Shown: piece after piece, positions 517 through 64,000 of the stretch
Layout: the number at the start of each line of letters is the position of its first letter
Position numbering within the stretch: the first letter of the stretch is position 1
Assembly (NCBI GenBank): GCA_038243585.1
Contig: JBBSQY010000010.1
Location: 19,802 to 83,801, forward strand
Direction of reading: 5' to 3'
From: Candidatus Sumerlaeales bacterium
Lineage (GTDB): Bacteria > Sumerlaeota > Sumerlaeia > Sumerlaeales > Sumerlaeaceae
Length of the DNA stretch: 64,000 nt
Program-made: the position numbers and the translations under genes
The notes under the pieces: generated by a model
Databases searched by the model: none
What the model was told of the DNA's origin: nothing
What the model saw: the letters and a program-made list of their open reading frames with translations, nothing else

Positions 517-858
517 ATGATAACCATACTTCGCATGGCGGGTCGCTTTTTTAAAACATGGTTTCTTTCATCGCCCGCCCATGACGCTTTTATAGCAGCC
601 TCGACCTCCACCATCAAGGAAGAACCATCAGTACCAGAAGGCGAGCCTGAATCCGTCCGATCGATTGCCGAGAACATTGATGATGATGCTACTATGGCCA
701 TAGACGAATCCACCGGTCAGGAACGTCGCCGCAACCGGGTGCCATCGGAGAGCCGGGCCATAGACTCATCTACCTTCAGCAATCTTGTAAAAGAACCGGA
801 AGCCGATAACGAACGCATGAGCCGCGTGCGAAAATTTGATGATGAAACCGGCGGGTAG
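517..858 (+). CDS. hypothetical protein, acidic and probably disordered
   Basis: 113-aa ORF starting 1 nt after the waaA stop; no recognisable motif. Confidence 0.55.
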   Translation: MITILRMAGRFFKTWFLSSPAHDAFIAASTSTIKEEPSVPEGEPESVRSIAENIDDDATMAIDESTGQERRRNRVPSESRAIDSSTFSNLVKEPEADNERMSRVRKFDDETGG

Positions 859-954: not shown

Positions 955-1170
955 AAAGCATCAGCAATTTAAGAGCCCTCAACAAGCTCGCGGAAGCGGG
1001 GTGAAAATCCCCCACGGCACACGCCGCTGTAACCGGTGACGATGTTCGCATAATAAAAATCCACTGGCCCATCAAGGCCGGGAAGGAAGCGAACAAAGGA
1101 CGACCCGGAAGTCAGAAGACGGAACTGCTCGATGCTCCCATATCAAAGGCTTCTCCGTGTGGAGAGAAGC
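955..1170 (+). ncRNA. cobalamin (B12) riboswitch with expression-platform hairpin
   Basis: GGAAGCGGGGTGAAAATCCCC (992-1012), GCCGCTGTAA (1023-1032), CCACTG (1061-1066), GGGAAGG (1080-1086) and B12-box-like GAAGTCAGAAGAC (1108-1120). P1 is AGCATCAGCA/TGCTCGATGCT. Hairpin GCTTCTC/GAGAAGC (1149-1170) precedes the ATG at 1185. Confidence 0.92.
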
Positions 1171-1184
1171 GAAGGGTTCAAAAG

Positions 1185-2000
1185 ATGAAACGTAGCATTT
1201 TGCAGACGATTTCTTTAAAGAATTCGTTTGGTCGCGTTGCTATGGCTGCGGCATTCAATATTACAATTTTCGCCGCGGTCGCCCAGACATTTCCGGACTC
1301 CGTGAAGGCTTTCGTACCGGGAGCCAATTCCGGACACGGACAAGCCTTTTATCCGGCGAACGTACTTGGTCCGCCACGCGGCACATCGAATCCCCAGGTT
1401 CCAACCTTTTCCCAAGCTGACCTGCTTTCCCTCGGCACGGGTGGTGCCATTACGCTGGAGTTTTCCAGCAGCCGCATAATTGATAAACCCGGTCCCGATT
1501 TTACGGTATTTGAAAACCCGGTGCAACCCTCTGGGCACCCGGAGCAGACCTATGCCGACACCGCCATTGTAGCGGTTTCAGATGATGGCATTGCATGGCA
1601 CACCTTCCCTTTTGACATGGTCAGTTCTGCTCCAAACAAGATAGCACTAAAAAGCAATTACGTTGGCTTCGCCGGAGTGCAACCGAGTCTCAGTTCACCA
1701 GAAAACGGCGTTTCACCTTTTGATCCGGCAGTAAGCGGCGGCGACCAGTTCGATCTGGCTGATTTAGGTCTGCCCCACGTTCGTTTTATCCGGATTACCG
1801 ATTCGGGCGATGCTCGTCATTTACCCGCTTTTGATTTGCATGGTGACATCGTATATGACTACGGCAACGTTCTTGATCCCGACCCAACAGAACCTGAAAA
1901 TGGAATAGCCGCAGGGTTTGATCTTGATGCCGTCGCCGGGATAAACACAGAGCCGTGGTCGCCTAACTCCGGGGTCCCGCACTGGTTTTTGTATGACTAG
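1185..2000 (+). CDS. secreted cell-surface protein, putative cobalamin-binding; C-terminal SGVPHWFLYD tail
   Basis: Signal-peptide-like N-terminus (..FAAVAQ; start may be 1242). Motifs SLGTGGAITLEF, PGPDFTVFENP, GGDQFDLADLGL and GFDLDAV. First gene after the B12 riboswitch. Confidence 0.7.
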   Translation: MKRSILQTISLKNSFGRVAMAAAFNITIFAAVAQTFPDSVKAFVPGANSGHGQAFYPANVLGPPRGTSNPQVPTFSQADLLSLGTGGAITLEFSSSRIIDKPGPDFTVFENPVQPSGHPEQTYADTAIVAVSDDGIAWHTFPFDMVSSAPNKIALKSNYVGFAGVQPSLSSPENGVSPFDPAVSGGDQFDLADLGLPHVRFIRITDSGDARHLPAFDLHGDIVYDYGNVLDPDPTEPENGIAAGFDLDAVAGINTEPWSPNSGVPHWFLYD

Positions 2001-2643
2001 GGCGCCCAGTTATATACGCGCTTTTACCCTCATTGAGCTTCTCATTGTTGTCGCAATTATTGCCGTACTCGCCGTGATTGCAGTGCCTAACTTTTTAATG
2101 GCGCAGCGCCGCGCAAATCAGGCGCGCTGCGCTACGAATCTAAAAGCCATCGCAGTGGCCCTTCAGACCTATAAAGTCGACATGAACAAATATCCACTCG
2201 CCGACGGAATCGCAGGCGAGGAGGAAAGCATGGCTGAGACCTTAATCGGAATGGGCCCAGCAGCCAACGGAAGCTGGGACGGTGTGCCGCGCATCCTGGT
2301 GCGTCTCGGTTACCTTGGATCTTCGACATACCTGTTTTGCCCTGAGTTCCGCAATCGCTTTCGCGGCGATCGGATGCAAAAATTTCGCTATGCTTACAAC
2401 AACAGCGCCGCCGACACCGGTGGAACAACCGGCGGAACCCATGACGTGGATCGCGACTCCGGTGACATTTGGTTCTGTCGATGCCTGTGGGTACCGGTAA
2501 AATATAGCTTCAAACCCGGCAGCAAAGACGTAAGTTTTCCCCACGGAGAGGACCGCACTTTGGAAAACGTTCTCTATTCCGACAGCCGAGTAACTCCCCG
2601 AGACGGACTTGACGACTACGAACAAGCCTATAATTTAAATTAA
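1993..2643 (+). CDS. prepilin-type N-terminal cleavage/methylation protein (pilin/pseudopilin-like)
   Basis: RA|FTLIELLIVVAIIAVLAVIAVPNF class III signal with Glu at +5. Internal FCPE and C-terminal HG..NVLYSDSRV resemble H-X9-DG-type pilins. Overlaps the upstream gene by 8 nt. Confidence 0.9.
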   Translation: MTRAPSYIRAFTLIELLIVVAIIAVLAVIAVPNFLMAQRRANQARCATNLKAIAVALQTYKVDMNKYPLADGIAGEEESMAETLIGMGPAANGSWDGVPRILVRLGYLGSSTYLFCPEFRNRFRGDRMQKFRYAYNNSAADTGGTTGGTHDVDRDSGDIWFCRCLWVPVKYSFKPGSKDVSFPHGEDRTLENVLYSDSRVTPRDGLDDYEQAYNLN

Positions 2644-2771: not shown

Positions 2772-5700
2772 ATGTCGCGTCCTTCGAATCTCCAGCAATC
2801 ACGAACTTTTCCAGGATTGTTAACCGTTTCTGTTCTCACTATTGCGATTTGCTTGTCGGCGATTGGGCGCACCACAATGGCCGCCACCACCGCAGTTAAT
2901 CTTCGCTGCGAGTTGCGCGAGAACCCCGTCGGCGTTGACAGTCTTAGCCCGCGTCTTAACTGGCAAATCGCTTCCAACCTCGCCGACAATCCCGCCGGCC
3001 AATCCGCCTATCAGATTCTCGTCGCCACCAGGCAGGAGCTCCTCGCTCCTGAAAAGGCCGACCTTTGGGATAGCCAACGCCTAGAATCCAGCAGTACGCT
3101 TCAGATCCCTTACGAAGGCAAGCCGCTCAAGTCCAATCAGCAGGTTTGGTGGACGGTGCGCACATGGGACATTGACGACGCGCCATCACCGTGGGCAGCG
3201 CCTGCCCAATGGACAATGGGACTTCTCTCTCCCTCGGACTGGCAAGGCCAATGGATCGGCACTACACCCGCAGGTGGTGAAACAAAGCGGCCGATAGAAC
3301 AGGCTATGTGGATATGGTCGTCTGAAGCCCAGGATGCTTTGGATGAAGGAACCACCGCTGGTAAGCCCGCCTCAAGTGCCGTACGATATTTCAGGCTGCA
3401 ATTTACGCCGCCTGCCAACGCAGATGTGGCAAAGGCCCGCATTTACATGGTCGCCGACAACAAGTCACAAATTTACCTTAATGGGCAACATCTCGGCAAT
3501 CACGACGACTGGAGTGTGTTGAAAACACTGGAGACGGGAAATCTCATAAAGGCCGGCGCTCCGAATTGGCTGAGCATCAAGGTAAGCAACTCCGGCTCAA
3601 CAGCCAACTCCGCCGGGCTTGCCGCTGTCGTCCAAATCCCTGTAGCCGATGGAAGTATCTTCAGCGAGTTTACCAACGACAAATGGGAAACCAGCCGCGC
3701 GCCCGACTCTGAAGGCTGGCCGGCGGCCCTGGCAAATGAAACTACAGAGACCGCACAGTGGGCACCAGCACGCATCCTCGGCAAATGGGGCATGGTGCCC
3801 TGGCACAAAGTGCGCAGCGGAACTCACCCGATCCTGCCGATCCTGCGTAAAGAATTTGCACTTGATAGACCCATCCGCCGGGCTCTTACCCACGTCTCAG
3901 GCCTGGGCCATTATGTACTTTCCATCAACGGCAAAAAAGTTGGCGACCATTTTCTCGATCCGGCATGGTCGCAATACAAAAAAACCGTCTACTACAACAC
4001 ATTCGACGTAACGCCTTTCTTGAAGAATGATCTGAACGCCCTAGGAATCATGCTTGGCAAAGGGTTTTACAGCACGGCCGGAGATAGGCGAATCCATGGT
4101 TCATTTTCCGACCGCCCGCTTGCCCTCATGCTCCAGACAGACATTGAATTTGAAGACGGGACAACAACCAGGGTCGTCACAGACTCGTCCTGGAAATGGA
4201 CCAGCGGCCCCCTCACCCATAACAGCATCCTCGGCGGGTCGGACTACGACGCCAGACTGAATCCAGAAGGTTGGGACAAGCCCGGCTTCGATGATTCCCA
4301 TTGGCAATCGGCATTCAAAACGACCAACCCGGGAGGTGTCCTTAAAGCCGCGTTCGCTCCACCCATGCGACAATTCGAGAATTTCAAACCGGTCAGCATT
4401 GAAGAGCCTGAGCCGGGAAATTTCGTGTATGACTTCGGCCAGAATGCAAGTGCATCTCCCCGCTTGAAGATTATAGGCCCGGCTGGTTCGACCATTAAAC
4501 TGACCTGGGCCGAGCAGCGGAAGGGACAGGATCCCAATTCAAATAACGGGAAAGGTGTCGTCGATCAATCCGGCATCGGGCACGGTTACGTAACCTACAC
4601 CCTAAGGGGCGACAACCAGGAAGAGGAATGGTTCAGCGAACTCTTCTATACCGGATATCAGTATCTCGGACTAACTGGCGGCGTGCCTGCAGGCTATCCA
4701 AACCCTGATGGAAAACCTGTTGTGACAGAACTTACTTCTGTTCATGTCCGCACAGATCAGCCGATAGTCGGCGCCTTCGCCACATCTAATCAAATGTATA
4801 ACCGCATTGATCAGATGGTGGATTGGGCCGTCCGCAGCAATCTCGGCCACGTGTTTACCGATTGCCCCACTCGCGAAAAACTGGGTTGGCTAGAAGTGCC
4901 GTGGCTCATGTGGGCATCCGTGGCGAGCCGCTACGACATTGGCGGTTACGGAGAGAAGATCGCCGGCGACATCCGCGACAGCCAGCTGACAAATGGTCAG
5001 ATCCTTACAGTCGCGCCCAGCTATCCGGAATTCGGTGGCGGCTTCCACTATACACCAGAATGGGGTGCCGCGGGCGTTTTCGTTCCTTGGGATTTGTACG
5101 AATGGTACAATGACCGCCGAGCGCTGGAACAGAATTACGAGATGATGCGTGGCTTTGTGGATTATATGGCCGCAACATCCGACAATCTCATTGCCGCTCC
5201 CGGCCTGGGCGACTGGTATGACTACATACCGGGCGAGCAACCTGGCGCGGCAAAGTACACGCCACCAGAGCTTAGCGCCACCGCAGTTTTCGCCGGATGC
5301 GCGGATATCGTATCCAGTTCCGCCGCTATACTTAAAAATCCTGCCGATCAGCAGAAATACGCAAAGCTAGCGTCTGAAATCAGGACGGCGTTCAACAAAA
5401 AGTTCCGGCAGGGTCCCGGTCAATATGCAAACAATGGCAGCCCGCAAACCGGTCATGCGATGGCGCTGGTATTTGACATCGTACCCCATGCGGAACGCGC
5501 TGCCGCGGCGCAGGCAATAGTCGATGACCTGGAAAAGCGAAACTGGCAGCAAACCTCCGGAGACGTTGGCTACCGCTTCTTACTTAACGCTCTCGCCCAA
5601 ACAGGCCATTCCGACGCGATCTTTAAAATACTTAACCGCGACGAACTAGGCAGTTACGCCTACCTGGTCAACTCCGGATGGACATCTCTGCCGGAAGCGT

Positions 5701-6110
5701 GGAATGCGAATCCCACCAGCAGCATGAACCACTGTATGCTCGGCCACATCCAGGAATGGTTCAGCCAGCACCTCGTCGGGATCGCGCCAGCACCGGGAAG
5801 TGTCGGATTTGACACCATCGCAATCCAGCCCACTCCCGGCGAAGGAGTCACATCTGCCACCGGCACATTAGATTCTCCGCGCGGTAAGATTACCGTCAAC
5901 TGGGAACAAAAAGACGGCTATTTTACCTGCGACGTCACTATCCCGCCGAACTCAACGGGTCTTATTCGCCTGCCTGTGCCTACCGATGCAATCATAACTG
6001 AAGCAGGAAAACCCATAGAAGAAAACAAAAGCATCATACGCCTGTCCCGTGACGGGTACAGGGAAGTCTTTCGCGTTCCCAGCGGCAGATACCAGTTCAT
6101 TGCAAAGTAA
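2772..6110 (+). CDS. alpha-L-rhamnosidase, glycoside hydrolase family 78, secreted
   Basis: LRCE..NPVGVD..PRLNW, DFGQN, TDCPTREKLGW, GLGDW, SMNHCMLG; N-terminal signal peptide. Confidence 0.92.
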   Translation: MSRPSNLQQSRTFPGLLTVSVLTIAICLSAIGRTTMAATTAVNLRCELRENPVGVDSLSPRLNWQIASNLADNPAGQSAYQILVATRQELLAPEKADLWDSQRLESSSTLQIPYEGKPLKSNQQVWWTVRTWDIDDAPSPWAAPAQWTMGLLSPSDWQGQWIGTTPAGGETKRPIEQAMWIWSSEAQDALDEGTTAGKPASSAVRYFRLQFTPPANADVAKARIYMVADNKSQIYLNGQHLGNHDDWSVLKTLETGNLIKAGAPNWLSIKVSNSGSTANSAGLAAVVQIPVADGSIFSEFTNDKWETSRAPDSEGWPAALANETTETAQWAPARILGKWGMVPWHKVRSGTHPILPILRKEFALDRPIRRALTHVSGLGHYVLSINGKKVGDHFLDPAWSQYKKTVYYNTFDVTPFLKNDLNALGIMLGKGFYSTAGDRRIHGSFSDRPLALMLQTDIEFEDGTTTRVVTDSSWKWTSGPLTHNSILGGSDYDARLNPEGWDKPGFDDSHWQSAFKTTNPGGVLKAAFAPPMRQFENFKPVSIEEPEPGNFVYDFGQNASASPRLKIIGPAGSTIKLTWAEQRKGQDPNSNNGKGVVDQSGIGHGYVTYTLRGDNQEEEWFSELFYTGYQYLGLTGGVPAGYPNPDGKPVVTELTSVHVRTDQPIVGAFATSNQMYNRIDQMVDWAVRSNLGHVFTDCPTREKLGWLEVPWLMWASVASRYDIGGYGEKIAGDIRDSQLTNGQILTVAPSYPEFGGGFHYTPEWGAAGVFVPWDLYEWYNDRRALEQNYEMMRGFVDYMAATSDNLIAAPGLGDWYDYIPGEQPGAAKYTPPELSATAVFAGCADIVSSSAAILKNPADQQKYAKLASEIRTAFNKKFRQGPGQYANNGSPQTGHAMALVFDIVPHAERAAAAQAIVDDLEKRNWQQTSGDVGYRFLLNALAQTGHSDAIFKILNRDELGSYAYLVNSGWTSLPEAWNANPTSSMNHCMLGHIQEWFSQHLVGIAPAPGSVGFDTIAIQPTPGEGVTSATGTLDSPRGKITVNWEQKDGYFTCDVTIPPNSTGLIRLPVPTDAIITEAGKPIEENKSIIRLSRDGYREVFRVPSGRYQFIAK

Positions 6111-19298: not shown

Positions 19299-19892
19299 CT
19301 ATTTACCAACATATCCGCCAGCACCTGTAACCATACCGCCTACGCCCTGGACGCCACCGCCTGCCAACGCAGCGCCCGGTTGTCCGGCATACGGATCAAC
19401 ACCGACCCCACCGCCAAAACCAACTCCCGGTGCGCCCGGGATAACCCCCTGAGGGGCCGCTGGCTGCTTGTTCGCAATCGAGTTTTTTAGCTGTAGTGAA
19501 ACCGCTGCCTGCCCTTTAACCTTCTCCTCATATGCTTCCGCAAGTTCTTCGAGCGTGTTCGGACCCGCAGGCGCTCCAGCGGGTGCAGAGGCTATTGGAT
19601 GCAACCTCGTAACCGCTACTGCCGGCACATAGCCAATCTCGCCGTTAAAAGCCAGCGTTACTATCTGACCATTCGATCCAAACGCTAAAAAGCGGCTATC
19701 CACCGGCAATGCACCAATAACCTGGTTTGTAGCCAGCGACTGCACTGCAATGGGTGAGCCAGGTGATTGCGCCATGGAAACCACCGTCTGCCATATCGGT
19801 TTACCATGTACAGGCACCGCCGCGAGCTCCTGGGCTACAGCAACAGAGGCCAATATTGAACAAACTGTAATACCGATAATTGCTTTTTTCAC
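19299..19892 (-). CDS. hypothetical secreted protein with possible SH3b-like domain and Gly/Pro-rich tail
   Basis: Signal peptide (..SVAVAQ), NGEIGYVP, low-complexity Gly-rich C-terminus; RBS-like GGAG upstream. Confidence 0.6.
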   Translation of the reverse strand: MKKAIIGITVCSILASVAVAQELAAVPVHGKPIWQTVVSMAQSPGSPIAVQSLATNQVIGALPVDSRFLAFGSNGQIVTLAFNGEIGYVPAVAVTRLHPIASAPAGAPAGPNTLEELAEAYEEKVKGQAAVSLQLKNSIANKQPAAPQGVIPGAPGVGFGGGVGVDPYAGQPGAALAGGGVQGVGGMVTGAGGYVGK

Positions 19893-36315: not shown

Positions 36316-39300
36316 ATGCCCCTAACTATACCTCCTTCCATGAAAGCCCGTTTTCGCCAACGCAGTGATGCTGACAAGTTGGTTAGACAATTTGGCATTG
36401 AGCAGCCACTAAATCAGGAGCTGTTAAGCACGCAACAGCTAGGGCAACAGGCCAGGCTTTTGGCACAAGCCCATAAAATTAGTGATGCTCACCGTCCTGA
36501 CCAGCTTCTACCTCGTCTTTCACAAAATGAAGCGGTGTTATTGCGTACACATAAAATCATTGCATCAGCAGCTGAACAAGGCAGCGAGATATCGACCATA
36601 GCGGAGTGGTTACTTGACAATTTCCACTTAATTGAAGGACAGATCCGCAAGGCCCGACTCCACTTACCCAAGTCCTATAGTCGCGAGCTACCTCGCCTTC
36701 TCAATGGCACGCATCGCGTTTATGATATAGTTCTAAAACTGATCTCGCACTCTGATGCGCGCCTTGACGCCGAGAACCTGGCATGGTTTATATCCGAATA
36801 TCAACAGGTGACATCTCTCAAACTAGGCGAATTGTGGGCTATCCCCATTATGCTGCGTCTTGGACTTATTGAAAACCTGCGCCGCATAGCATCCAAGATA
36901 ACTGCACGCCATGTGGAATATGAAAAAGCCGTTTACTGGGCAAATCGCCTGATGGAACAGGCGGAGACTGATCGTATTAAGCTGGTGGTTAAAGTCGCAG
37001 AACTTGCTATGTCAGATGTAACTCTCGAAAGCGCCTTTGTCACGGAATTTACCCGTCGCCTGCAAGGTCAAGCTACAGAGCAAACCTTCACCCTTGCCTG
37101 GCTGGATCAGCAACTGGCTCAAAAGAACACATCAGTCCGCCAGCTGGTCCAACTGGAAAATCACGCACAGGCCGCAGAGCAACTTTCCATCAGCAACTGT
37201 ATCGCAAGCTTGCGATCGCTAGATGCCATCGATTGGCGAGATTTCGTCGAAAGCCTAAGTTACGTTGAAAAAACGTTGCGCAACGATCCAGCAGACGTTT
37301 ACAAAAATTCCGATTTTAGTACACGAGACACTTATCGCCATGCGATAGAATCTGTCTCACGATATAGTCAATCGACAGAAGTTGAGGTCGCTGAACTTGC
37401 GGTAAAACTAGCCACTGATGCTGCGATTGACGGTATTGAAAGCGCACGTAAAGGTCACGTCGGCTATTACCTGGTGGGACCCGGGCTTAAACAGCTTCAC
37501 CAAGCGGTGAGAGCGCGTCCGGGCTTTCTGTCGAACGCCGGTGATTTATCCCGGAATCATGCTCTTTTTCTTTACCTTTTTTCGGTTATTGCCTTGGCCA
37601 CTATCGTAACTTTTTTTATCCTTACTTCACCTCTGGGCAATGTCTCTACATGGCTGGCTACTTTGCTCGGCATTGCTACTCTTTTTCTGACAATACAAAT
37701 AGCCTTAGATATTGTCAATCGCGCTGCAATGCATATTGTTAAACCACGCCGTCTTCCCCGAATGAATTTTGAACATGAGATTCCTTCGGAGTTTACGACG
37801 CTTGTTACCGTGCCGACATTGCTTACCAACACGCAATCCGTGGAGGAACTGCTGGAGGGATTGGAGGTTAGATTCCTTGCTAACCGACAGGAAAATATTT
37901 ACTTCAGCTTACTTACAGACTTTCCGGATGCTCCTCAAGGTCAAATGCCCGGTGACGCAGAACTGCTTGCACAGACAGTCACTGGTATAGAGTCGTTAAA
38001 CGAAAAATATGGCTCAACAAACCACGAATCACCGTTTTATCTTTTTCACCGCCCGCGGCTTTGGAATAATCAGGAAAACGTGTGGATGGGCCGCGAACGA
38101 AAACGCGGAAAACTTTCAGATCTAAACGCATTGCTGCGCGGCGAACGAAACGGCGCATTTGCTAAGACAGTGGGTGACATACAAGTCTTGCAGGCCGTGA
38201 AATTTGTCATAACCCTTGATACTGATACTTTACTTCCTCGTGACAGCGCCAGGGAACTTATAGGGACTTTGGCCCACATACTCAATCTGCCGGAAATTAA
38301 TGAGTCAACCGGTTGCGTACGGCACGGTTACGGCATTCTACAGCCCCGCATTAGCACAGACCTCCCTTCCAGATCGAAAACGATTTTCCACAACCTATAT
38401 GGTGGCCAGCCGGGAATTGATCCATACACTCAGACAGTCTCTGATGTGTACCAGGATCTTTTTTATGAAGGCTCTTTTATTGGTAAAGGCATCTATGATG
38501 TCGACGCGTTTCAGATTGCGTTGGAAAATCGTCTCCCTGATAATCGGATTCTAAGTCATGACCTTATTGAAGGATGTTACGCACGCTCAGGACTGCTCAG
38601 CGATGTCCAACTTTACGAGTCATATCCACTGCGGTATGCTACGGACGTCAGTCGCCGACGCCGCTGGATTAGAGGAGACTGGCAGATAAGTCTCTGGGCT
38701 TTTTCCAGTCCTCCAGACAAAGATGGAAACCCGGTTTGTAATCCACTGCACGGTATTTCCAGATGGAAAATTTTTGATAATCTTCGGCGCAGTGTTCAGC
38801 CTGCTGCAATGACGATGCTGTTTTTTCTGGCCTGGCTTACGCCCGTGCCATATATATGGACTGCTACTATAATCGCGTTGTTATCCGCTCCATATATTCT
38901 TACATCAATTATTAACCTACTAAAAAAGCCAGTGGATCTGCCTTTTACCGTTCATGCGTCACGCGGAATTAAAGATCTGCTTCGCCATGTGGGACAGCTC
39001 CTTTTTTCTATAACCATGTTACCTTTCGAAGCGGCTTTTTCACTGGATTCGATTTTCAGATCTCTCGTGCGAATGTTAGTTACGAAGCAACATCTCCTAG
39101 AATGGACCACATCCATTGACGCCGAGCGCAGTGCAAAATCAACTTTGACAGCGTCTCTATACCAAATGTCGGTAGCCCCTGTAATTACGATTGTTATCGG
39201 CATCGTCATTTGGTTATTTAATCCTCACGCTCTACCAGTTGCCGCACCGTTTCTCATTGGATGGTTCTTTTCGCCAGTTGTCGCTTGGTGGGTGAGTCGA

Positions 39301-42300
39301 ATATTGCCGGTCAACGTACCGCATTTATCTGCCGCACAAATCCGCTTTCTTGAGATTCGGGCACGAAAGATCTGGCGTTTTTTCGAAACATTCAGCGGGT
39401 CTGATAACAATTGGATTCCAGTTGATAATTACCAGGAATACCCCGTTACAGCCACGGCGCGACGTACGTCTCCCACGAATATTGGAATGGGGCTGGTCGC
39501 AAACATCGCAGCTCATGAGTTCGCCTATATTTCTACAGGAATGTTACTCGAGCGCACCGCCAACACTTTAAATACCATGCAGCGCATGGAGAAGTTTCGC
39601 GGACATTTCTTTAACTGGTACGATACTGTGTCGCTCCAGCCTTTAATGCCGAAATACGTTTCTTCTGTAGACAGCGGAAACCTTGCCGGGCATTTGCTCG
39701 TTTTGCGTCAGGGGCTGCTCGCCCTTCAGGAAAAAGCGGTGTTGTGTCCGCAACTTCGCAATGGGGTTGCTCACACCTTACAGGTCATCGTAGATGTCAT
39801 CAATAGCAGATCATCTGAGACATCAAAACCGATTCCTCCAGAATTGCTGGTTCGGTTAAAATCACTGGAAAATCAGCTGGCAAACCCTTGCGCTGGAATT
39901 GCTGAAGCAAAACACCTGCTTACGCTCTTATCCGTTGAAGCAGCCTCTCTTTTCCAAACCTTTGGTCAGGGACTGGATAGCGAAACCTCATACTGGCTTG
40001 ATGCTTTTCAGCACCAGTGTAATGATCTTGTTGCAGACTTGGAGCGCTCTGCTCCATGGACTGAGCTGGTTAAAGAATTAACGGATGTTATTGAGACTCA
40101 GTACTCCGATGATGTTACAAAGCGTGATCTACGGGATTTTTTAATCAATCTGAACGGTCACATTTCTTTGTCTGGACTTGCAAATTTAAGAAACATCGAT
40201 CTGCAGTTTTTGAAAACCGCCCCGGCACAGGACTCCAACTCAGACTCACCAATCGCTGCATTATTGCAGCAGCTAAATGAAGTCCTGCTAGCGGCCAGCG
40301 ACGAAGCGTCTTCAACCATTAAAGAAATAACAACTCTGGCGGATCTTTCCGGACAGCTGGCAAACTTTGAATGGGATTTCCTATACGACAAGTCGAGAAG
40401 TCTTCTTACAATCGGGTACAATGTTGATGAAGTTCGTCGTGATGAAAGCTTTTACGATCTGCTTGCCTCAGAATCCCGGCTCGGTAGTTTTGTCGGTATT
40501 GCTCAGGGGCATTTCCCGCAAAAGCATTGGTTTTCTCTAGGACGGCAGCTCACAACCTCTGGTGGACAGGCGGCTTTGCTTTCCTGGAGCGGCTCTATGT
40601 TCGAGTACCTTATGCCTAACCTGGTCATGCCCAGCTATGATAGTACTTTGCTGGAGGAAACTTGCAGAGCTGTTGTAGACAGGCAGATAGAATACGGCCG
40701 CCAGCGCGGCGTGCCGTGGGGGATTTCAGAATCCGGATATAACGTTGTCAATACCCAGCTGGACTATCAGTACAAGGCTTTTGGTGTGCCAGGACTTGGA
40801 CTGAAACGCGGCCTATCAAAGGATTTGGTCATTGCCCCTTATGCCTCCATGCTGGCGCTGATGATTGAGCCTGAGAAGGCATGTGAAAATATAGAACGAA
40901 TGGTTCTTCAAGGTGCTGAAGGTGCCTACGGGATGTACGAAGCGATTGACTATACCAGCGCTCGCGTGCCTCGCGGCCAGGCGTTTGCCATGGTGAGGTC
41001 ATTTATGTCACATCACCAGGGCATGAGCTTTCTTTCCCTGGCCTATATCCTCCTGAATCGTCCGATGCAGAAGCTATTTGCCATGGATCCCAATTTTCGT
41101 GCGACAGAGCTCCTGCTGCAAGAGCGAATTCCTCAAATTTCCCCGTTTTATCCTCACACAGTAGAGGTGGAAAATATAAGGACCGGCTCGTCTTCTGAAG
41201 AAGATTTAGTCGGCATCTTTAATACGCCAGACACGCAGGTTCCGGTAGTTCAGTTATTGTCCAATGGTCGCTACCACGTTGTTGTTACGGCAGCAGGTGG
41301 TGGATATAGCAGATGGAACGACATGGCTGTTTCGCGATGGAGAGAAGATCCCACTTGCGACAATTGGGGCCAGTTCTGTTATATCCGAGATGTCGAATCT
41401 GGAGAGTTCTGGTCTACGACTCACCACCCCACGCTAAAAACGACCCGCCGATACACAGCAATCTTTTCGCCGGGGCGTGCAGAATTCAGGCGCGTTGACA
41501 AGGACATCGAAGCCTACACAGAGATCGTAGTATCTTCCGATGACGACTTTGAATTGCGCCGCACAACTATTACCAACCGCTCTCTCACGCTGCGCAATAT
41601 TGAAGTGACAAGCTATTCTGAAATTGTACTTGCACCCCAGGCTTCGGACGAAACCCACCCCGCGTTCAGCAATCTTTTTGTCGAAACAGAAATTGTTCCG
41701 ACACACAACGCCATACTCTGCACTCGCCGGAAACGGTCCCCGGAAGAACACCATCCTTGTATGGTGCACATTATGGCAGTTCATTCTGCAAACATAGGTC
41801 CAGCTTCTTACGAAACTGATAGAACTAAGTTTATCGGACGTGGAAATAGCGTTGCAAATCCGGTAGCCATGAAGGTCCCATCCGCACTGTCAGGAAGCGA
41901 TGGCCCCGTGTTGGATCCCATCGTCTCAGTCCGGCGCACTGTTACCCTGGAACCTGGCGAAATCGCCATTGTAGATATTATTACCGGAATTAGTGAATCT
42001 CGCGAGCTTGCGCTGGACTTTCTCGGTCGATATCAGGATCGACATCAGGCAGATCGGACCATCGAACTTTCCTGGACTCACGAGCGCATACTGTTTCGCC
42101 ACCTTGCTTTATCCCGGAGCGTTCTACAGATATATCAGCAGCTGGCTAGCGCTGTGATTTTTGTCAGCAAAGCGTATCGGGCGCCAACGGCTACCCTTGA
42201 ACTGAACAAGCGAGCGCAGCCAGGTCTGTGGTCGCTAGGCATATCCGGTGATCTACCCATTGTCCTGCTACGTGTGGAGGATATGGCCCACCTGGCTTTG

Positions 42301-45069
42301 GTCCGCGAAACCCTTCACGTTCATGCCTACTGGCATGAAATGGGATTAAAAACCGATCTCGTTATCTTAAACGAAGACCGCTCTGGATATAGACAGTTAC
42401 TCCACGATGAGTTACTAGGGCTGATAGCTATAAGTGGTGAGCTGATTGACCGCCCCAGCGGGATTTTTCTGCGCCATAGCGATCAGATGACTGAGGATGA
42501 TCGAGTACTGCTGCAAGTCGCATCGCGGGTAATCCTTAGTGGCAACGATGGCTCGCTGGCCAATCATGCGGAACGGCGTCGTGCTAAGAATCCTGTCATT
42601 CCCAAACTGGAAAGATCGTTTAGGGCACGCCAGGATGATCCACCACCCATGCAGCCGCCTTTCCGCGAGCTTTCCTTCTATAACGGATTTGGTGGGTTTA
42701 CTCCCGATGGACGCGAATACGTCATTACAACTGACAGAAGAATCCGTACTCCAGCGCCTTGGGTTAACGTAATTGCAAACCCATACTTTGGTACCGTTGT
42801 TACAGAAAGCGGAGGTGGATACACCTGGCGGGAAAATGCCCATGAGTATCGTTTAACCCCATGGTCAAATGATCCCGTCAGTGACTCAACAGGTGAAGCT
42901 ATCTACATTCGTGACGAAGAGACTGGATCGCTGTGGTCACCAACACCATTGCCGGCTCGCAGCACAAACTCTTATGTCACACGCCATGGGTTTGGCTACA
43001 CGGTATTTGAGCATGAGTACCAGGGTATCATTACAGAGCTTTGGATTTATGTCGCAATGGATGCTGGAGTAAAATTCTCAGCGCTTAAGATACGCAACGC
43101 CTCTGGTAGACCCCGTCGGCTGTCTACGACTGCCTACGTAGAATGGGTGCTTGGAGAACTGCGTCGAAAGACCATGATGCACGTCAAAACCGAAGTGGAC
43201 TTACAGACCGGTGCGCTATTCGCCACCAACCCGTATAACTCAGAAATGGGAGATCGCGTAGCGTTTCTGGATGTAAACGTCCGCGAGCGTACCGTCACTG
43301 GCGACCGAACCGAATTCCTCGGCCGAAACGGAACAATGAGAAAGCCGGCAGCGCTTTCTCGTGTGCGGCTATCGAACAGGACCGGTCTTGCAATGGATCC
43401 TTGTGGCACCATTCAGGTGAAGTTGGATCTCGCAGACGGAGAAACTCGTGATATCGTTTTTCTTTTAGGGGCGGGGCGCGACAGGGATGACGCACGGGCA
43501 CTGGTGGAGCGATTCAACAAATTTGAACAGCCGCTCCAGGTCCTGGATAGCGTCTGGCAATACTGGAATAATACATTGGGCGGCATTAACATCGTAACAC
43601 CCGACAAATCCGTCGACCTCCTCGCCAATGGCTGGCTTCTATACCAATCCATTTCTTCGCGGATGTGGGGCCGAAGCGGCTTCTACCAATCCGGCGGAGC
43701 TTTTGGATACCGCGATCAGTTGCAGGATGCTATGGCACTTATCCATGTGCAGCCGGTCCAGTTGCGCGACCATCTTTTGCTGAGCGCAGGCCGTCAATTC
43801 CTTGAAGGCGATGTTCAGCACTGGTGGCACCCCCCTGCTGGACGAGGGGTTCGCACCCATTGCTCAGACGACCTCTTGTGGCTGCCTCTGGCCGTGTGCA
43901 GGTATGTAGATGCCATTGGAGATACTGGCATACTGGACGAACAGATAGAGTATCTGCAAGCGCCGCTTTTGGATCAGAACCAAGAAGCTCATTATGACCT
44001 TCCGGCACAATCTGGCCAGTCAGGCTCTCTATATGACCATTGTGTAAGGGCCCTCGAAAAAGGTCTGACTTCCGGCGCTCATGGTCTGCCGCTGATTGGT
44101 GGATGCGACTGGAACGACGGCATGAACCTGGTAGGTGCAGAAGGTAAGGGAGAGAGCGTGTGGCTGGCATTCTTCCTATACGACATCCTTCATAAATTCT
44201 CAAAACTGGCTGAGCAGCGGGGAGACCAGCAATTTGCTATGCGCTGCCTCTCTGAAGCAACACGCCTTCAGGAAAATGTGGAAAAACACGCGTGGGATGG
44301 TGAGTGGTACCGCCGCGCATACTATGATAATGGCGAGCCAATGGGATCTGCATCCCGAGATGAATGCCAGATAGATTCCCTTTGCCAAAGCTGGGCAGTC
44401 CTTTCAGGTGCGGGTGATCCTGAGCGAGTAAAGATCGCTATGGCGTCCCTGGATAAGCGCTTGGTCCGATCGGACGGCTCCCTCATCCTTCTCCTTGATC
44501 CGCCCTTCGACGACTCTGATCAGGAACCTGGCTACATCAAAGGCTATGTTCCTGGCGTCAGAGAAAACGGAGGACAATATACCCATGCTGCCATATGGAC
44601 AGTAATGGCATTTGCACGCTCTGGCGATGCCGCCCGCGCATGGGAGCTTTTCCGGTTAATCAACCCGATCAACCACTCATCCACCCCCGACCTGGTTTCC
44701 ACCTATCGCGTAGAACCCTACGTGGTTGCGGCGGATGTTTACGGGGCAGAGCCGCATGTGGGCCGAGGTGGCTGGACGTGGTATACCGGTTCAGCATCGT
44801 GGATGTACCGTTTGATTATTGAATCACTTCTCGGATTGGACCGCAAGATTGACATGCTGCACCTTGCGCCATGTCTTCCTTCAGACTGGCCATCATTGCA
44901 GATACATTACCGCTATTACGAGACGGTGTATCATCTCAATATGACACGGACAGGCAGCAGCAACAGCATTACCAGGATATTAATTGACGGAGTAGAGCAG
45001 AATTCGAAGACAGCTATTAAGATGGAGAACGATCATATAGATCACTCCGTCTCCATAGAGATAGGTTAA
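36316..45069 (+). CDS. ndvB: cyclic beta-1,2-glucan synthase (NdvB/ChvB/Cgs; GT84 with C-terminal GH94 phosphorylase domain)
   Basis: 2917 aa; EWLLDNF, ELWAIPIMLR, ERKRGKL, LSHDLIEG, RWIRGDWQ, SWSGSMFEYLMP, QSGGAFGYRDQLQD, DWNDGMN, ENGGQYTH. Confidence 0.93.
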   Translation: MPLTIPPSMKARFRQRSDADKLVRQFGIEQPLNQELLSTQQLGQQARLLAQAHKISDAHRPDQLLPRLSQNEAVLLRTHKIIASAAEQGSEISTIAEWLLDNFHLIEGQIRKARLHLPKSYSRELPRLLNGTHRVYDIVLKLISHSDARLDAENLAWFISEYQQVTSLKLGELWAIPIMLRLGLIENLRRIASKITARHVEYEKAVYWANRLMEQAETDRIKLVVKVAELAMSDVTLESAFVTEFTRRLQGQATEQTFTLAWLDQQLAQKNTSVRQLVQLENHAQAAEQLSISNCIASLRSLDAIDWRDFVESLSYVEKTLRNDPADVYKNSDFSTRDTYRHAIESVSRYSQSTEVEVAELAVKLATDAAIDGIESARKGHVGYYLVGPGLKQLHQAVRARPGFLSNAGDLSRNHALFLYLFSVIALATIVTFFILTSPLGNVSTWLATLLGIATLFLTIQIALDIVNRAAMHIVKPRRLPRMNFEHEIPSEFTTLVTVPTLLTNTQSVEELLEGLEVRFLANRQENIYFSLLTDFPDAPQGQMPGDAELLAQTVTGIESLNEKYGSTNHESPFYLFHRPRLWNNQENVWMGRERKRGKLSDLNALLRGERNGAFAKTVGDIQVLQAVKFVITLDTDTLLPRDSARELIGTLAHILNLPEINESTGCVRHGYGILQPRISTDLPSRSKTIFHNLYGGQPGIDPYTQTVSDVYQDLFYEGSFIGKGIYDVDAFQIALENRLPDNRILSHDLIEGCYARSGLLSDVQLYESYPLRYATDVSRRRRWIRGDWQISLWAFSSPPDKDGNPVCNPLHGISRWKIFDNLRRSVQPAAMTMLFFLAWLTPVPYIWTATIIALLSAPYILTSIINLLKKPVDLPFTVHASRGIKDLLRHVGQLLFSITMLPFEAAFSLDSIFRSLVRMLVTKQHLLEWTTSIDAERSAKSTLTASLYQMSVAPVITIVIGIVIWLFNPHALPVAAPFLIGWFFSPVVAWWVSRILPVNVPHLSAAQIRFLEIRARKIWRFFETFSGSDNNWIPVDNYQEYPVTATARRTSPTNIGMGLVANIAAHEFAYISTGMLLERTANTLNTMQRMEKFRGHFFNWYDTVSLQPLMPKYVSSVDSGNLAGHLLVLRQGLLALQEKAVLCPQLRNGVAHTLQVIVDVINSRSSETSKPIPPELLVRLKSLENQLANPCAGIAEAKHLLTLLSVEAASLFQTFGQGLDSETSYWLDAFQHQCNDLVADLERSAPWTELVKELTDVIETQYSDDVTKRDLRDFLINLNGHISLSGLANLRNIDLQFLKTAPAQDSNSDSPIAALLQQLNEVLLAASDEASSTIKEITTLADLSGQLANFEWDFLYDKSRSLLTIGYNVDEVRRDESFYDLLASESRLGSFVGIAQGHFPQKHWFSLGRQLTTSGGQAALLSWSGSMFEYLMPNLVMPSYDSTLLEETCRAVVDRQIEYGRQRGVPWGISESGYNVVNTQLDYQYKAFGVPGLGLKRGLSKDLVIAPYASMLALMIEPEKACENIERMVLQGAEGAYGMYEAIDYTSARVPRGQAFAMVRSFMSHHQGMSFLSLAYILLNRPMQKLFAMDPNFRATELLLQERIPQISPFYPHTVEVENIRTGSSSEEDLVGIFNTPDTQVPVVQLLSNGRYHVVVTAAGGGYSRWNDMAVSRWREDPTCDNWGQFCYIRDVESGEFWSTTHHPTLKTTRRYTAIFSPGRAEFRRVDKDIEAYTEIVVSSDDDFELRRTTITNRSLTLRNIEVTSYSEIVLAPQASDETHPAFSNLFVETEIVPTHNAILCTRRKRSPEEHHPCMVHIMAVHSANIGPASYETDRTKFIGRGNSVANPVAMKVPSALSGSDGPVLDPIVSVRRTVTLEPGEIAIVDIITGISESRELALDFLGRYQDRHQADRTIELSWTHERILFRHLALSRSVLQIYQQLASAVIFVSKAYRAPTATLELNKRAQPGLWSLGISGDLPIVLLRVEDMAHLALVRETLHVHAYWHEMGLKTDLVILNEDRSGYRQLLHDELLGLIAISGELIDRPSGIFLRHSDQMTEDDRVLLQVASRVILSGNDGSLANHAERRRAKNPVIPKLERSFRARQDDPPPMQPPFRELSFYNGFGGFTPDGREYVITTDRRIRTPAPWVNVIANPYFGTVVTESGGGYTWRENAHEYRLTPWSNDPVSDSTGEAIYIRDEETGSLWSPTPLPARSTNSYVTRHGFGYTVFEHEYQGIITELWIYVAMDAGVKFSALKIRNASGRPRRLSTTAYVEWVLGELRRKTMMHVKTEVDLQTGALFATNPYNSEMGDRVAFLDVNVRERTVTGDRTEFLGRNGTMRKPAALSRVRLSNRTGLAMDPCGTIQVKLDLADGETRDIVFLLGAGRDRDDARALVERFNKFEQPLQVLDSVWQYWNNTLGGINIVTPDKSVDLLANGWLLYQSISSRMWGRSGFYQSGGAFGYRDQLQDAMALIHVQPVQLRDHLLLSAGRQFLEGDVQHWWHPPAGRGVRTHCSDDLLWLPLAVCRYVDAIGDTGILDEQIEYLQAPLLDQNQEAHYDLPAQSGQSGSLYDHCVRALEKGLTSGAHGLPLIGGCDWNDGMNLVGAEGKGESVWLAFFLYDILHKFSKLAEQRGDQQFAMRCLSEATRLQENVEKHAWDGEWYRRAYYDNGEPMGSASRDECQIDSLCQSWAVLSGAGDPERVKIAMASLDKRLVRSDGSLILLLDPPFDDSDQEPGYIKGYVPGVRENGGQYTHAAIWTVMAFARSGDAARAWELFRLINPINHSSTPDLVSTYRVEPYVVAADVYGAEPHVGRGGWTWYTGSASWMYRLIIESLLGLDRKIDMLHLAPCLPSDWPSLQIHYRYYETVYHLNMTRTGSSNSITRILIDGVEQNSKTAIKMENDHIDHSVSIEIG

Positions 45070-50303: not shown

Positions 50304-50389
50304 TGGTGTCGGGGATGGGACTTGAACCCACACGAGGTTGCCCCCGCCAGCCCCTCAAGCTGGTGCGTCTGCCATTCCGCCACCCCGAC
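50304..50389 (-). tRNA. tRNA-Leu (anticodon GAG), CCA encoded
   Basis: Minus strand GTCGGGGTGGCGGAATGGCAGACGCACCAGCTTGAGGGGCTGG..GGTTCAAGTCCCATCCCCGACACCA with a long variable arm. Confidence 0.97.
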
Positions 50390-63371: not shown

Positions 63372-64000
63372 ATGGCTGAGTATTCTTATAAAGCACTGGA
63401 TAAAGGCGGGCGCGAAGTCAAAGGCGTCATTGAGGCCAGCAGTGAAGACGTTATTATTGAACGTCTCCGGAACATGGGCTACTACCCTCTTGAAGTTTCC
63501 ATCGAAAAGGCAAAGGCTGGCAGCGTCGACGTGCTCGCGCTTCCCGGTATCCGCAGCGTTTTCCACCGCGTTAAGCATAAGCATATCATGGTGTTTACTC
63601 GACAGTTCGCCACACTAATCGATGCGGGCCTACCCATTATCCGCTCCCTTGCCATTTTAAGTGAGCAGGTTGAGTCTGTCATTTTTAAAGAAAAGATAAA
63701 ACAGATTTCCAAAGACATTGAAAGCGGCGGCACCTTGTCGGAAGCGCTTTCGAAGCACAAAAAGCTGTTTGACGACCTTTACGTAAACATGGTGCGGGCC
63801 GGCGAAATAGGCGGTGTGCTCGAGGCGGTTCTGAACAAAATCGCCGAATTCCTAGAAAAACGCCAGGCCATCATCGGTAAAGTGCGATCCGCCATGATGT
63901 ATCCTCTGGTGGTTATTATCCTGGCTGGATTTATCGTGGCCTTCATTCTTGTCTTCATTGTGCCCAAATTTAAAGACATTTACGATCAGCTGGGCACGGA
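63372..64000 (+). CDS. pilC: type II secretion F family / type IV pilus platform protein (3' truncated by window; absent from the ORF track)
   Basis: Translated by eye: MAEYSYKALDKGGREVKGVIEA, FTRQFATLIDAGLPI, LSEALSKH, YVNMVRAGEIGGVLE, SAMMYP. Confidence 0.9.
   Translation, partial: MAEYSYKALDKGGREVKGVIEASSEDVIIERLRNMGYYPLEVSIEKAKAGSVDVLALPGIRSVFHRVKHKHIMVFTRQFATLIDAGLPIIRSLAILSEQVESVIFKEKIKQISKDIESGGTLSEALSKHKKLFDDLYVNMVRAGEIGGVLEAVLNKIAEFLEKRQAIIGKVRSAMMYPLVVIILAGFIVAFILVFIVPKFKDIYDQLGT

Follow-up and report, generated by a model that had tools for sequence, protein, structure and literature searches.

The 64,000-nucleotide window analysed here (positions 19,802 to 83,801 of contig JBBSQY010000010.1, assembly GCA_038243585.1, Candidatus Sumerlaeales bacterium, phylum Sumerlaeota) carries near its start a cobalamin riboswitch followed by two overlapping plus-strand genes, which encode a secreted protein with a predicted BtuH-like fold (P0001) and a type IV pilin-like protein (P0002). 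Comparison with related genomes indicates that the riboswitch has the pilin as its constant companion in this phylum and that the pilin probably serves corrinoid acquisition. The riboswitch aptamer occupies 957–1136 of the plus strand. Its core at 992–1120 matches the Rfam covariance model RF00174 with 81.1 bits (E-value 2e-18; gathering score 31.5) over model positions 47–167 of 189, and RNA folding extends it beyond the Rfam core by a closing helix (approximately 957–966 with 1126–1136); the fold has a z-score of −2.25 against 200 shuffles. The near-complete B12 riboswitch of the original prediction is thus confirmed, together with its start at 955. The predicted expression platform (1137–1184, plus strand) contains a hairpin at 1149–1170 in the minimum-energy fold, where CCC at 1137–1139 pairs with the GGG of a Shine–Dalgarno-like GAAGGG (1171–1176), as read from one structure of low frequency. 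With the GAAGGG sequestered by pairing and no run of T after the hairpin on the plus strand, B12 presumably shuts off translation via this riboswitch. Neither a sigma-70-like promoter nor a plus-strand terminator is found within 800–2900.

The two open reading frames after the riboswitch (1185–2000 and 1993–2643) share 8 nucleotides, ATGACTAG, in agreement with the overlap described in the original prediction. P0001 (1185–2000, plus strand, 271 amino acids) has a predicted Sec signal peptide at approximately residues 1–33, judged by eye from a basic N-terminus, a hydrophobic stretch and the cleavage site AVA/Q, followed by a predicted beta-sandwich at residues 33–257. Its C-terminus, S-G-V-P-H-W-F-L-Y-D, contains a W-x-L-Y tail (1968–1997, plus strand), for which the genome-wide consensus is [ST]-x-[VA]-x-D-W-x-[LI]-[YF]. 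The tail, the signal peptide and the short motifs that had been named for this protein are all present in the first reading frame. P0001 has no match in Pfam, and its score against NF033170 (LIC_13355 family lipoprotein) is 43.4 bits, under the cut-off of 120. A total of 810 homologues were found, and the resemblance to BtuH proposed in the original prediction holds at the level of the fold. The predicted structure (predicted local distance difference test, pLDDT, 91) aligns with the H domain of BtuG1 (8BLW_B; Z 12.6, root-mean-square deviation (rmsd) 3.0, 163 residues aligned, 21% identity) and with BtuH2 (7BIZ_B; Z 12.5, rmsd 3.0, 155 aligned, 17% identity), which are the top two of 48,161 chains and are followed by carbohydrate-binding modules at Z 9.1; Foldseek also places BtuH-type structures at ranks 1–3, with E-values of 9e-5 and 3e-4. 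BtuH2 binds B12 via this domain, with contacts at Gln333, Asn399, Phe401, His476, Tyr510, Trp511, Trp577 and Leu578 (PMC8941943). In the P0001 homologues an invariant F-E-N, after which 54 of 99 have x-F (V in P0001 itself), is reminiscent of N399-x-F401 in its sequence pattern. P0001 lacks the architecture of the BtuH lipoproteins, being a single domain without the Cys, a PKD domain or a propeller. Because sequence searches of the PDB miss BtuH2, and because the lipoprotein signal and the N-terminal domains are absent, P0001 is regarded by its predicted structure as BtuH-like and is not filed as BtuH.

The P0001 family is itself commonly found under B12 riboswitches. In Sumerlaeota, one precedes 28 of the 31 family matches, and a riboswitch-like match on the same strand accompanies 69 of 79 GTDB loci, which derive from the best 80 of 541 confirmed P0001 matches and were scanned with a home-made nhmmer profile trained on 29 switches of Sumerlaeota, which recovered 40 of 40 positive controls. 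Among longer relatives, P0155 is fused to a YncE-type propeller, for which PDB sequences give chance matches only, and P0181 is fused to three DUF4465 domains; DUF4465 (IPR027828) corresponds to the BtuJ family (10.1101/2025.08.21.671476; PMC12751083). Homologues outside the phylum bear other sorting tags, such as the tails of the type IX secretion system (T9SS). In P0180 (865 amino acids; two sources supply its three full-length members), an in-frame fusion joins a P0001-family domain with a dockerin, an anchor and an H-X9-DG pilin, which ties this family of putative catchers to a different pilin family. The P0180 anchor is PEP-CTERM-like by eye, and an autotransporter repeat is also present; the basic tail of the anchor doubles as the H-X9-DG prepilin leader, so that a prepilin peptidase would cut the protein in two.

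P0002 (1993–2643, plus strand, 216 amino acids) is a prepilin, as had been proposed: both PF07963 (N_methyl) and TIGR02532 match above their cut-offs. It has a class III signal comprising a short basic leader of 10 residues (1993–2022) with Ala instead of Gly at position −1, a mature N-terminus at F1 (2023), E5 and a hydrophobic helix of 54 residues, followed by a loop-rich head. E5 is present in 54 of 54 orthologues. In the predicted structure (pLDDT 95; helix 3–54), the top 18 matches by VIA-align are all pilins, ComP structures being among the matches, with a modest best score (Z 5.8, rmsd 3.0, 115 aligned); Foldseek gives no match at E-values up to 0.001, which does not show a new fold. 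The head has a median identity of 0.41 across families, and many of its D, W, Y, R and P residues never vary; the invariant positions include D53, D61, W85, D86, R122, Y123, W150 and E181 of the mature protein. With only 28 clusters at 50% identity in a set of 1.84 billion representatives, the family is a small one. An assignment to the H-X9-DG/DUF1559 pilins, with which the original prediction proposed a comparison, had to be given up: the motif occurs in 0 of 54 orthologues, PF07596 reaches 21 bits against a cut-off of 23.3 and covers residues 43–78 only, and comparison of the head with the H-X9-DG head profile gives an hhalign probability of 0.2% against one member. There is a loose likeness to H-X9-DG pilins by eye only (CP ... 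Y-x-YN ... H ... N-x-L-x-x-D), and look-alikes of the P0002 head in the Atlas include one cluster with 12% DUF1559 members, which is a lead only.

The genome of this stretch (G000; 3.43 Mb, 99 contigs, 89.7% complete), whose closest named homologues belong to Candidatus Sumerlaeota, has 24 other pilins similar to P0002, and therefore a chance adjacency to the riboswitch, with the pilin lying outside the B12 regulon as a stray member of an expanded family, had to be excluded. P0002 is distinct from these paralogues. A profile of its head picks only P0002 in this genome (E-value 1e-67; next match, 0.0056), and the orthologues form a single-copy family on their own side of a branch supported by a Shimodaira–Hasegawa-like approximate likelihood ratio test (SH-aLRT) value of 97, in a quick tree without bootstrap that includes 28 of the 54 orthologues. 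A D-x-T-N-G-T motif found in 22 of the 24 paralogues is absent from them. Among 75 Sumerlaeota genomes, in which kin are not independent, a P0002 orthologue is found in 68 (E-value up to 1e-25), a riboswitch match in 71 and a P0001 homologue in 30; 106 riboswitch positions were used, one sub-threshold row having been dropped. RF00174 is followed by the pilin, in the same orientation and at a distance of at most 3.9 kb, in 52 of the 68 genomes and in 14 of 18 families, a placement with a chance of about 0.001 per gene. As for the 16 remaining genomes, eight have less than 3 kb of contig upstream of the pilin and eight are truly unlinked by both Rfam and nhmmer. More distant homologues come from a set of 29 metagenome loci that includes some near-duplicates; 20 of these loci were scanned, and RF00174 lies upstream of the pilin in 11. 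The 25 similar pilins of this genome and the eight unlinked genomes would suit a chance neighbour, yet the recurrence of the same orthologue behind the switch in 14 families and in the distant loci, together with the 8-nucleotide overlap, makes that explanation extremely improbable. The synteny in relatives that the original prediction proposed to look for is thus present. Pilin orthologues without a detectable riboswitch are seen at loci L184–L188, L190–L192, L215, L216, L220 and L224.

The arrangement around the pilin differs from that expected of a fixed pair with P0001. In 40 operon regions, the usual order is the switch, zero to three proteins with the W-x-L-Y tail, and then the pilin, and the tail proteins beside this pilin come from six or more families without relation to one another, BNR and PQQ propellers among them. 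The pilin and a P0001 homologue lie on separate contigs, each with its own riboswitch, in five genomes (G058, G042, G043, G045 and G033). A second riboswitch of G000, on contig C33, drives a tail protein of 366 amino acids (G000:C33:5334–6434; L001:242–1342) without a match in Pfam or the PDB, whose homologues sit in the B12-pilin operons of five genomes and, in G021, G023 and G029, share an operon with the pilin as well as with P0001. Because these homologues join P0001 and the pilin in relatives, G000 has a split version of the operon. It can be concluded from this comparative evidence that the riboswitch has its constant partner in the pilin and not in P0001, which is one of several interchangeable tail-bearing proteins. 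The proposal of a surface binder working with a dedicated pilin is accordingly supported in its linkage and in the BtuH fold, with the adjustment that the pilin is the constant member; of its refuting conditions, those that were checked (a missing covariance-model hit and a lack of conserved linkage) did not apply.

The tail also turns out to be less special to this locus than had been implied. It is present on P0001 as described, but 74 proteins of at least 200 amino acids in G000 carry it, and it is probably a signal for sorting or surface display. Many of its carriers are unrelated secreted proteins, and no NCBIfam or Pfam model covers it on P0001, making it a candidate for an undescribed sorting signal. 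The pilin might be a dedicated pseudopilin adaptor that exports or displays the tailed catchers via a type II secretion-like machine and makes no contact with B12 itself, which would enter by a different path. A tail-protein gene adjoins 10 of the 25 similar pilins in G000, as against 153 of 2277 genes (6.7%) overall, and both the diversity of the tail families beside the B12 pilin and the use of other sorting tags outside the phylum would suit such a role. On the other hand, the riboswitch has the pilin as its first gene in 11 genomes of six families, and in G013, G042 and G058 the gene after this riboswitch-led pilin runs in the opposite direction. The head is conserved although the cargo families are unrelated, 74 tail proteins face only 25 such pilins, and the outer-membrane step is left unexplained. 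An adaptor for catchers is therefore an unlikely role.

Passage of cobalamin through an outer membrane is generally taken to depend on a TonB-dependent receptor. Sumerlaeota are diderm, as judged from Omp85 and secretins in G000, yet 63 of the 75 genomes show no TonB receptor and 73 show no CbiC. PF00593 gives 0 candidates across the whole of G000 (at 89.7% completeness), and with a home-made TonB receptor profile only N-terminal Ig-like repeats are matched in this genome. The domain occurs in 12 of 75 genomes, one copy each, none of them on a riboswitch-bearing contig, and is absent from the single-contig genomes G066 and G069; no TonB receptor or barrel gene is seen in the 40 operon regions. 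TonB receptors are thus nearly absent from the phylum, as anticipated for relatives lacking btuB. P0001 homologues outside the phylum have a TonB receptor in 33 of 73 loci and the pilin motif in 0 of 73, where the receptor counts refer to the fetched DNA and 15 of the 33 loci trained the receptor profile; in Sumerlaeota, the receptor is found in 0 of 6 loci and the pilin motif in 6 of 6. CbiC is present in two genomes (G068 and G069, of one genus), both without the pilin, and in G069 the riboswitches flank corrin synthesis genes, two convergent cobalamin riboswitches bracketing the synthesis cluster at L183 (G069:C1:2673000–2692999). G000 has MetH, no MetE match and no CbiC.

Genes for the inner-membrane step of B12 uptake are linked to the pilin in some relatives. 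The absence of BtuB and BtuCDF from the unit and the window, pointed out in the original prediction, is correct, and BtuF-like and FecCD genes are missing from the window because they are encoded on other contigs (C1 and C41). In relatives they come close to the pilin, which precedes BtuF-like, ATP-binding cassette (ABC) and FecCD genes in G046. Among the distant homologues, L206 has the order switch, BtuF, FecCD, ABC, two secreted proteins and pilin, L221 the order switch, pilin, FecCD and ABC, and L231 the order switch, pilin and CobT. This adjacency would also be expected if the pilin were a filament-free periplasmic corrinoid binder, anchored in the inner membrane and serving BtuF/BtuCD, with B12 entering via an unrecognised outer-membrane pore, a role for which two TonB_C-domain genes in G000 might be adduced. 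Legionella PilA2, which is reported to aid iron acquisition without PilT, PilD or piliation, offers a precedent (PMC13170364). However, the invariant E5 and the prepilin leader favour a pilin that is processed and assembled, the periplasmic role is already taken by BtuF, no barrel gene was seen in the operon regions and PilT is expanded, so that a filament-free binder is improbable, to about the same degree as an adaptor.

The genes of a retractile type IV pilus machine (PilB, PilT, PilC and a secretin) are present in G000, as judged from domain matches. PilT-family matches are found in 75 of 75 genomes, 3–13 in each, although matches do not equal copy numbers; G000 has four PilB/GspE proteins, at least 10 PilT-sized ATPases, secretins on three contigs, and Omp85. 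The PilT-family retraction ATPases of G000 are located on contigs C2, C5, C8, C22, C23, C31, C42, C75 and C93. The pilC gene that the original prediction had cited for a possible pilus machinery is indeed a PilC/T2SSF gene (63372–64000, plus strand, running off the contig end; PF00482, E-value 5.5e-36), but it lies 60 kb from the operon and was rejected as a linked partner. Closely similar gene pairs are found on separate contigs of G000, namely ExbD/TolR with TonB_C (C1:24194–25832 and C81:1612–3256) and PilT and pilin genes (C5/C75 and C14/C67), which points to recent duplication or to a mixture of strains in the bin.

From these observations, a pathway of B12 uptake can be proposed. The riboswitch heads both genes, and B12 would shut off their translation. 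P0001 would be exported, held at the surface by its W-x-L-Y tail, and predicted to bind corrinoids in a BtuH-type pocket. P0002 might be processed as a prepilin into a minor subunit of a type IV filament capable of retraction, and the conserved head of the pilin would bind the corrinoid directly or receive it from the catchers. Retraction driven by PilT would then pull the corrinoid via the secretin to the periplasm, as in DNA uptake, and a BtuF-like protein and a FecCD/ABC importer, suggested by the linkage in relatives, would complete the import and feed MetH. That the pilin serves corrinoid acquisition in some way is likely from its genomic context. That it acts as the B12 receptor itself, carrying the corrinoid through the retractile pilus and secretin with P0001 as the catcher, is a proposal about evenly balanced between being right and wrong.

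Several observations weigh against such import by the pilus. No secretin, PilB or PilT was seen by eye among the genes of the 40 operon regions. In sequence searches of the PDB with P0001 or a 99-sequence profile, nothing beyond chance was obtained at E-values up to 10, and no known B12 binder is among the VIA-align matches of the P0002 head. In the eight unlinked genomes (G005, G006, G032, G039, G040, G041, G051 and G063), the pilin has no riboswitch, and a switch at another site controls tail proteins alone. Of the 12 genomes in which a TonB receptor is found, seven have a linked pilin as well, so that the two are not mutually exclusive. The contrast between corrin synthesis and the pilin rests on one genus, and three genomes (G027, G070 and G073) have neither the pilin nor CbiC, but they are 58–88% complete. 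Finally, the two pairs of ExbD/TolR and TonB_C-domain genes in G000, which may belong to Tol or Ton, could energise an unrecognised outer-membrane importer.

A parallel to the B12 pilin is found directly upstream of the second B12 riboswitch of G000, where a different pilin, a tail protein, a major facilitator superfamily (MFS) transporter and a heme oxygenase are encoded in a run (G000:C33:6922–10439; L234, L001) that is headed by the pilin, at C33:9825–10439. Of the 75 genomes, 14 have this pilin, and in six of them it lies at most 2.4 kb upstream of the heme oxygenase; a heme oxygenase occurs anywhere in 12 of these 14 genomes, as against 24 of 75 overall. It is a candidate for a heme-uptake pilin. 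A broader and somewhat doubtful extension is that pilus-driven import has wholly replaced TonB transport in Sumerlaeota, each paralogous pilin being specific for a substrate and working with tailed catchers, in the manner of SusC–SusD, with a secretin and with the expanded PilT. Corrinoids would be the substrate of the present pilin and heme that of another, and the riboswitch would simply disclose the ligand of the B12 member. The B12 pilin might instead be an adhesin of B12 starvation, which attaches the cell to B12 producers or particles while the catchers scavenge locally. The phylum is nearly without B12 synthesis, and the pilin-like MUL2A of Akkermansiaceae has been proposed for attachment and substrate concentration (PMC13174399). 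Varied partners would predict a variable head, yet that of P0002 has many invariant residues, and adhesion explains neither how B12 enters in the absence of BtuB nor why the pilin is linked to btuFCD and cobT, nor the parallel with heme oxygenase; a function as an adhesin is accordingly very unlikely.

If the proposed import by pilus retraction is true, it would represent an active outer-membrane route for small molecules, and would supply the first ligand for the pilin repertoires that have expanded so strongly in phyla poor in TonB. Both switch and catcher belong to known kinds, and the step carried out by the pilin would be the new part, as suggested by comparative genomics only. No paper on a B12-regulated pilin, or on a pilin in the place of BtuB, was found in the literature searched, which covered papers without their supplementary tables.

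The surroundings of the operon contain other genes. A gene for a GH78 alpha-L-rhamnosidase (2772–6110, plus strand) follows the pilin and was rejected as a member of the operon, the gene after the pilin differing among relatives; an alpha-L-rhamnosidase gene also follows the pilin in G061, and not in the other relatives read. Upstream, an acidic open reading frame of 113 amino acids (517–858, plus strand), without a match in Pfam or NCBIfam, lies between the riboswitch and a glycosyltransferase-like gene at the start of the window, which is KdtA-like by eye. Further downstream, the window contains an open reading frame of 2917 amino acids (36316–45069, plus strand) and a tRNA with a long variable arm (50307–50389, minus strand).

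There are several known systems with which this locus can be compared. The Btu system of Bacteroides thetaiotaomicron includes BtuH2 and BtuG1/BtuGH together with BtuB, BtuG, BtuJ and BtuFCD (PMC8941943; PMC12751083), and a review describes a relay centred on BtuB (PMC13616437). The present locus resembles it in the cobalamin riboswitch, the interchangeable surface proteins, the BtuH fold and the BtuF/FecCD partners, and the propeller (P0155) and DUF4465 (P0181) fusions of P0001 relatives recall BtuGH and BtuJ. On the other hand, BtuB is absent and the pilin occupies the place of the TonB receptor in the operon; P0001 differs from BtuH2 and BtuG1 in having no lipoprotein Cys and no PKD domain, in sharing 17–21% identity over the aligned core, and in its W-x-L-Y tail. 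With the E. coli-type BtuB–TonB/BtuFCD system (PMC8941943), it shares a riboswitch-headed uptake gene and an inner-membrane ABC step, encoded in the genome or in relatives' operons, whereas the constant gene of the riboswitch is here a pilin and PF00593 is absent from most of the phylum. Legionella PilA2 (iron; PMC13170364) and Akkermansia MUL2 (mucin; PMC13174399) are likewise pilin-like proteins tied to nutrient uptake, although neither is reported to involve corrinoids or riboswitches, PilA2 acting without piliation and MUL2 being proposed for attachment. The H-X9-DG/DUF1559 (PF07596) pilins also form large paralogous families, and one member is fused to a P0001-family domain in P0180; P0002 orthologues differ from them in lacking the motif, in a PF07596 match that stays below the cut-off and is N-terminal only, and in the absence of a match to the head profile. 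In DNA uptake by type IV pili, a pilin binds the ligand and PilT retracts it through the secretin, with minor pilins of the ComP type. Unlike this process, the inferred cargo here would be a small cofactor, the control is by a metabolite riboswitch and the machine genes are unlinked; the prepilin leader, E5 and the pilin fold are nevertheless shared with it, as are PilB, PilT, PilC and secretins encoded in the genome.

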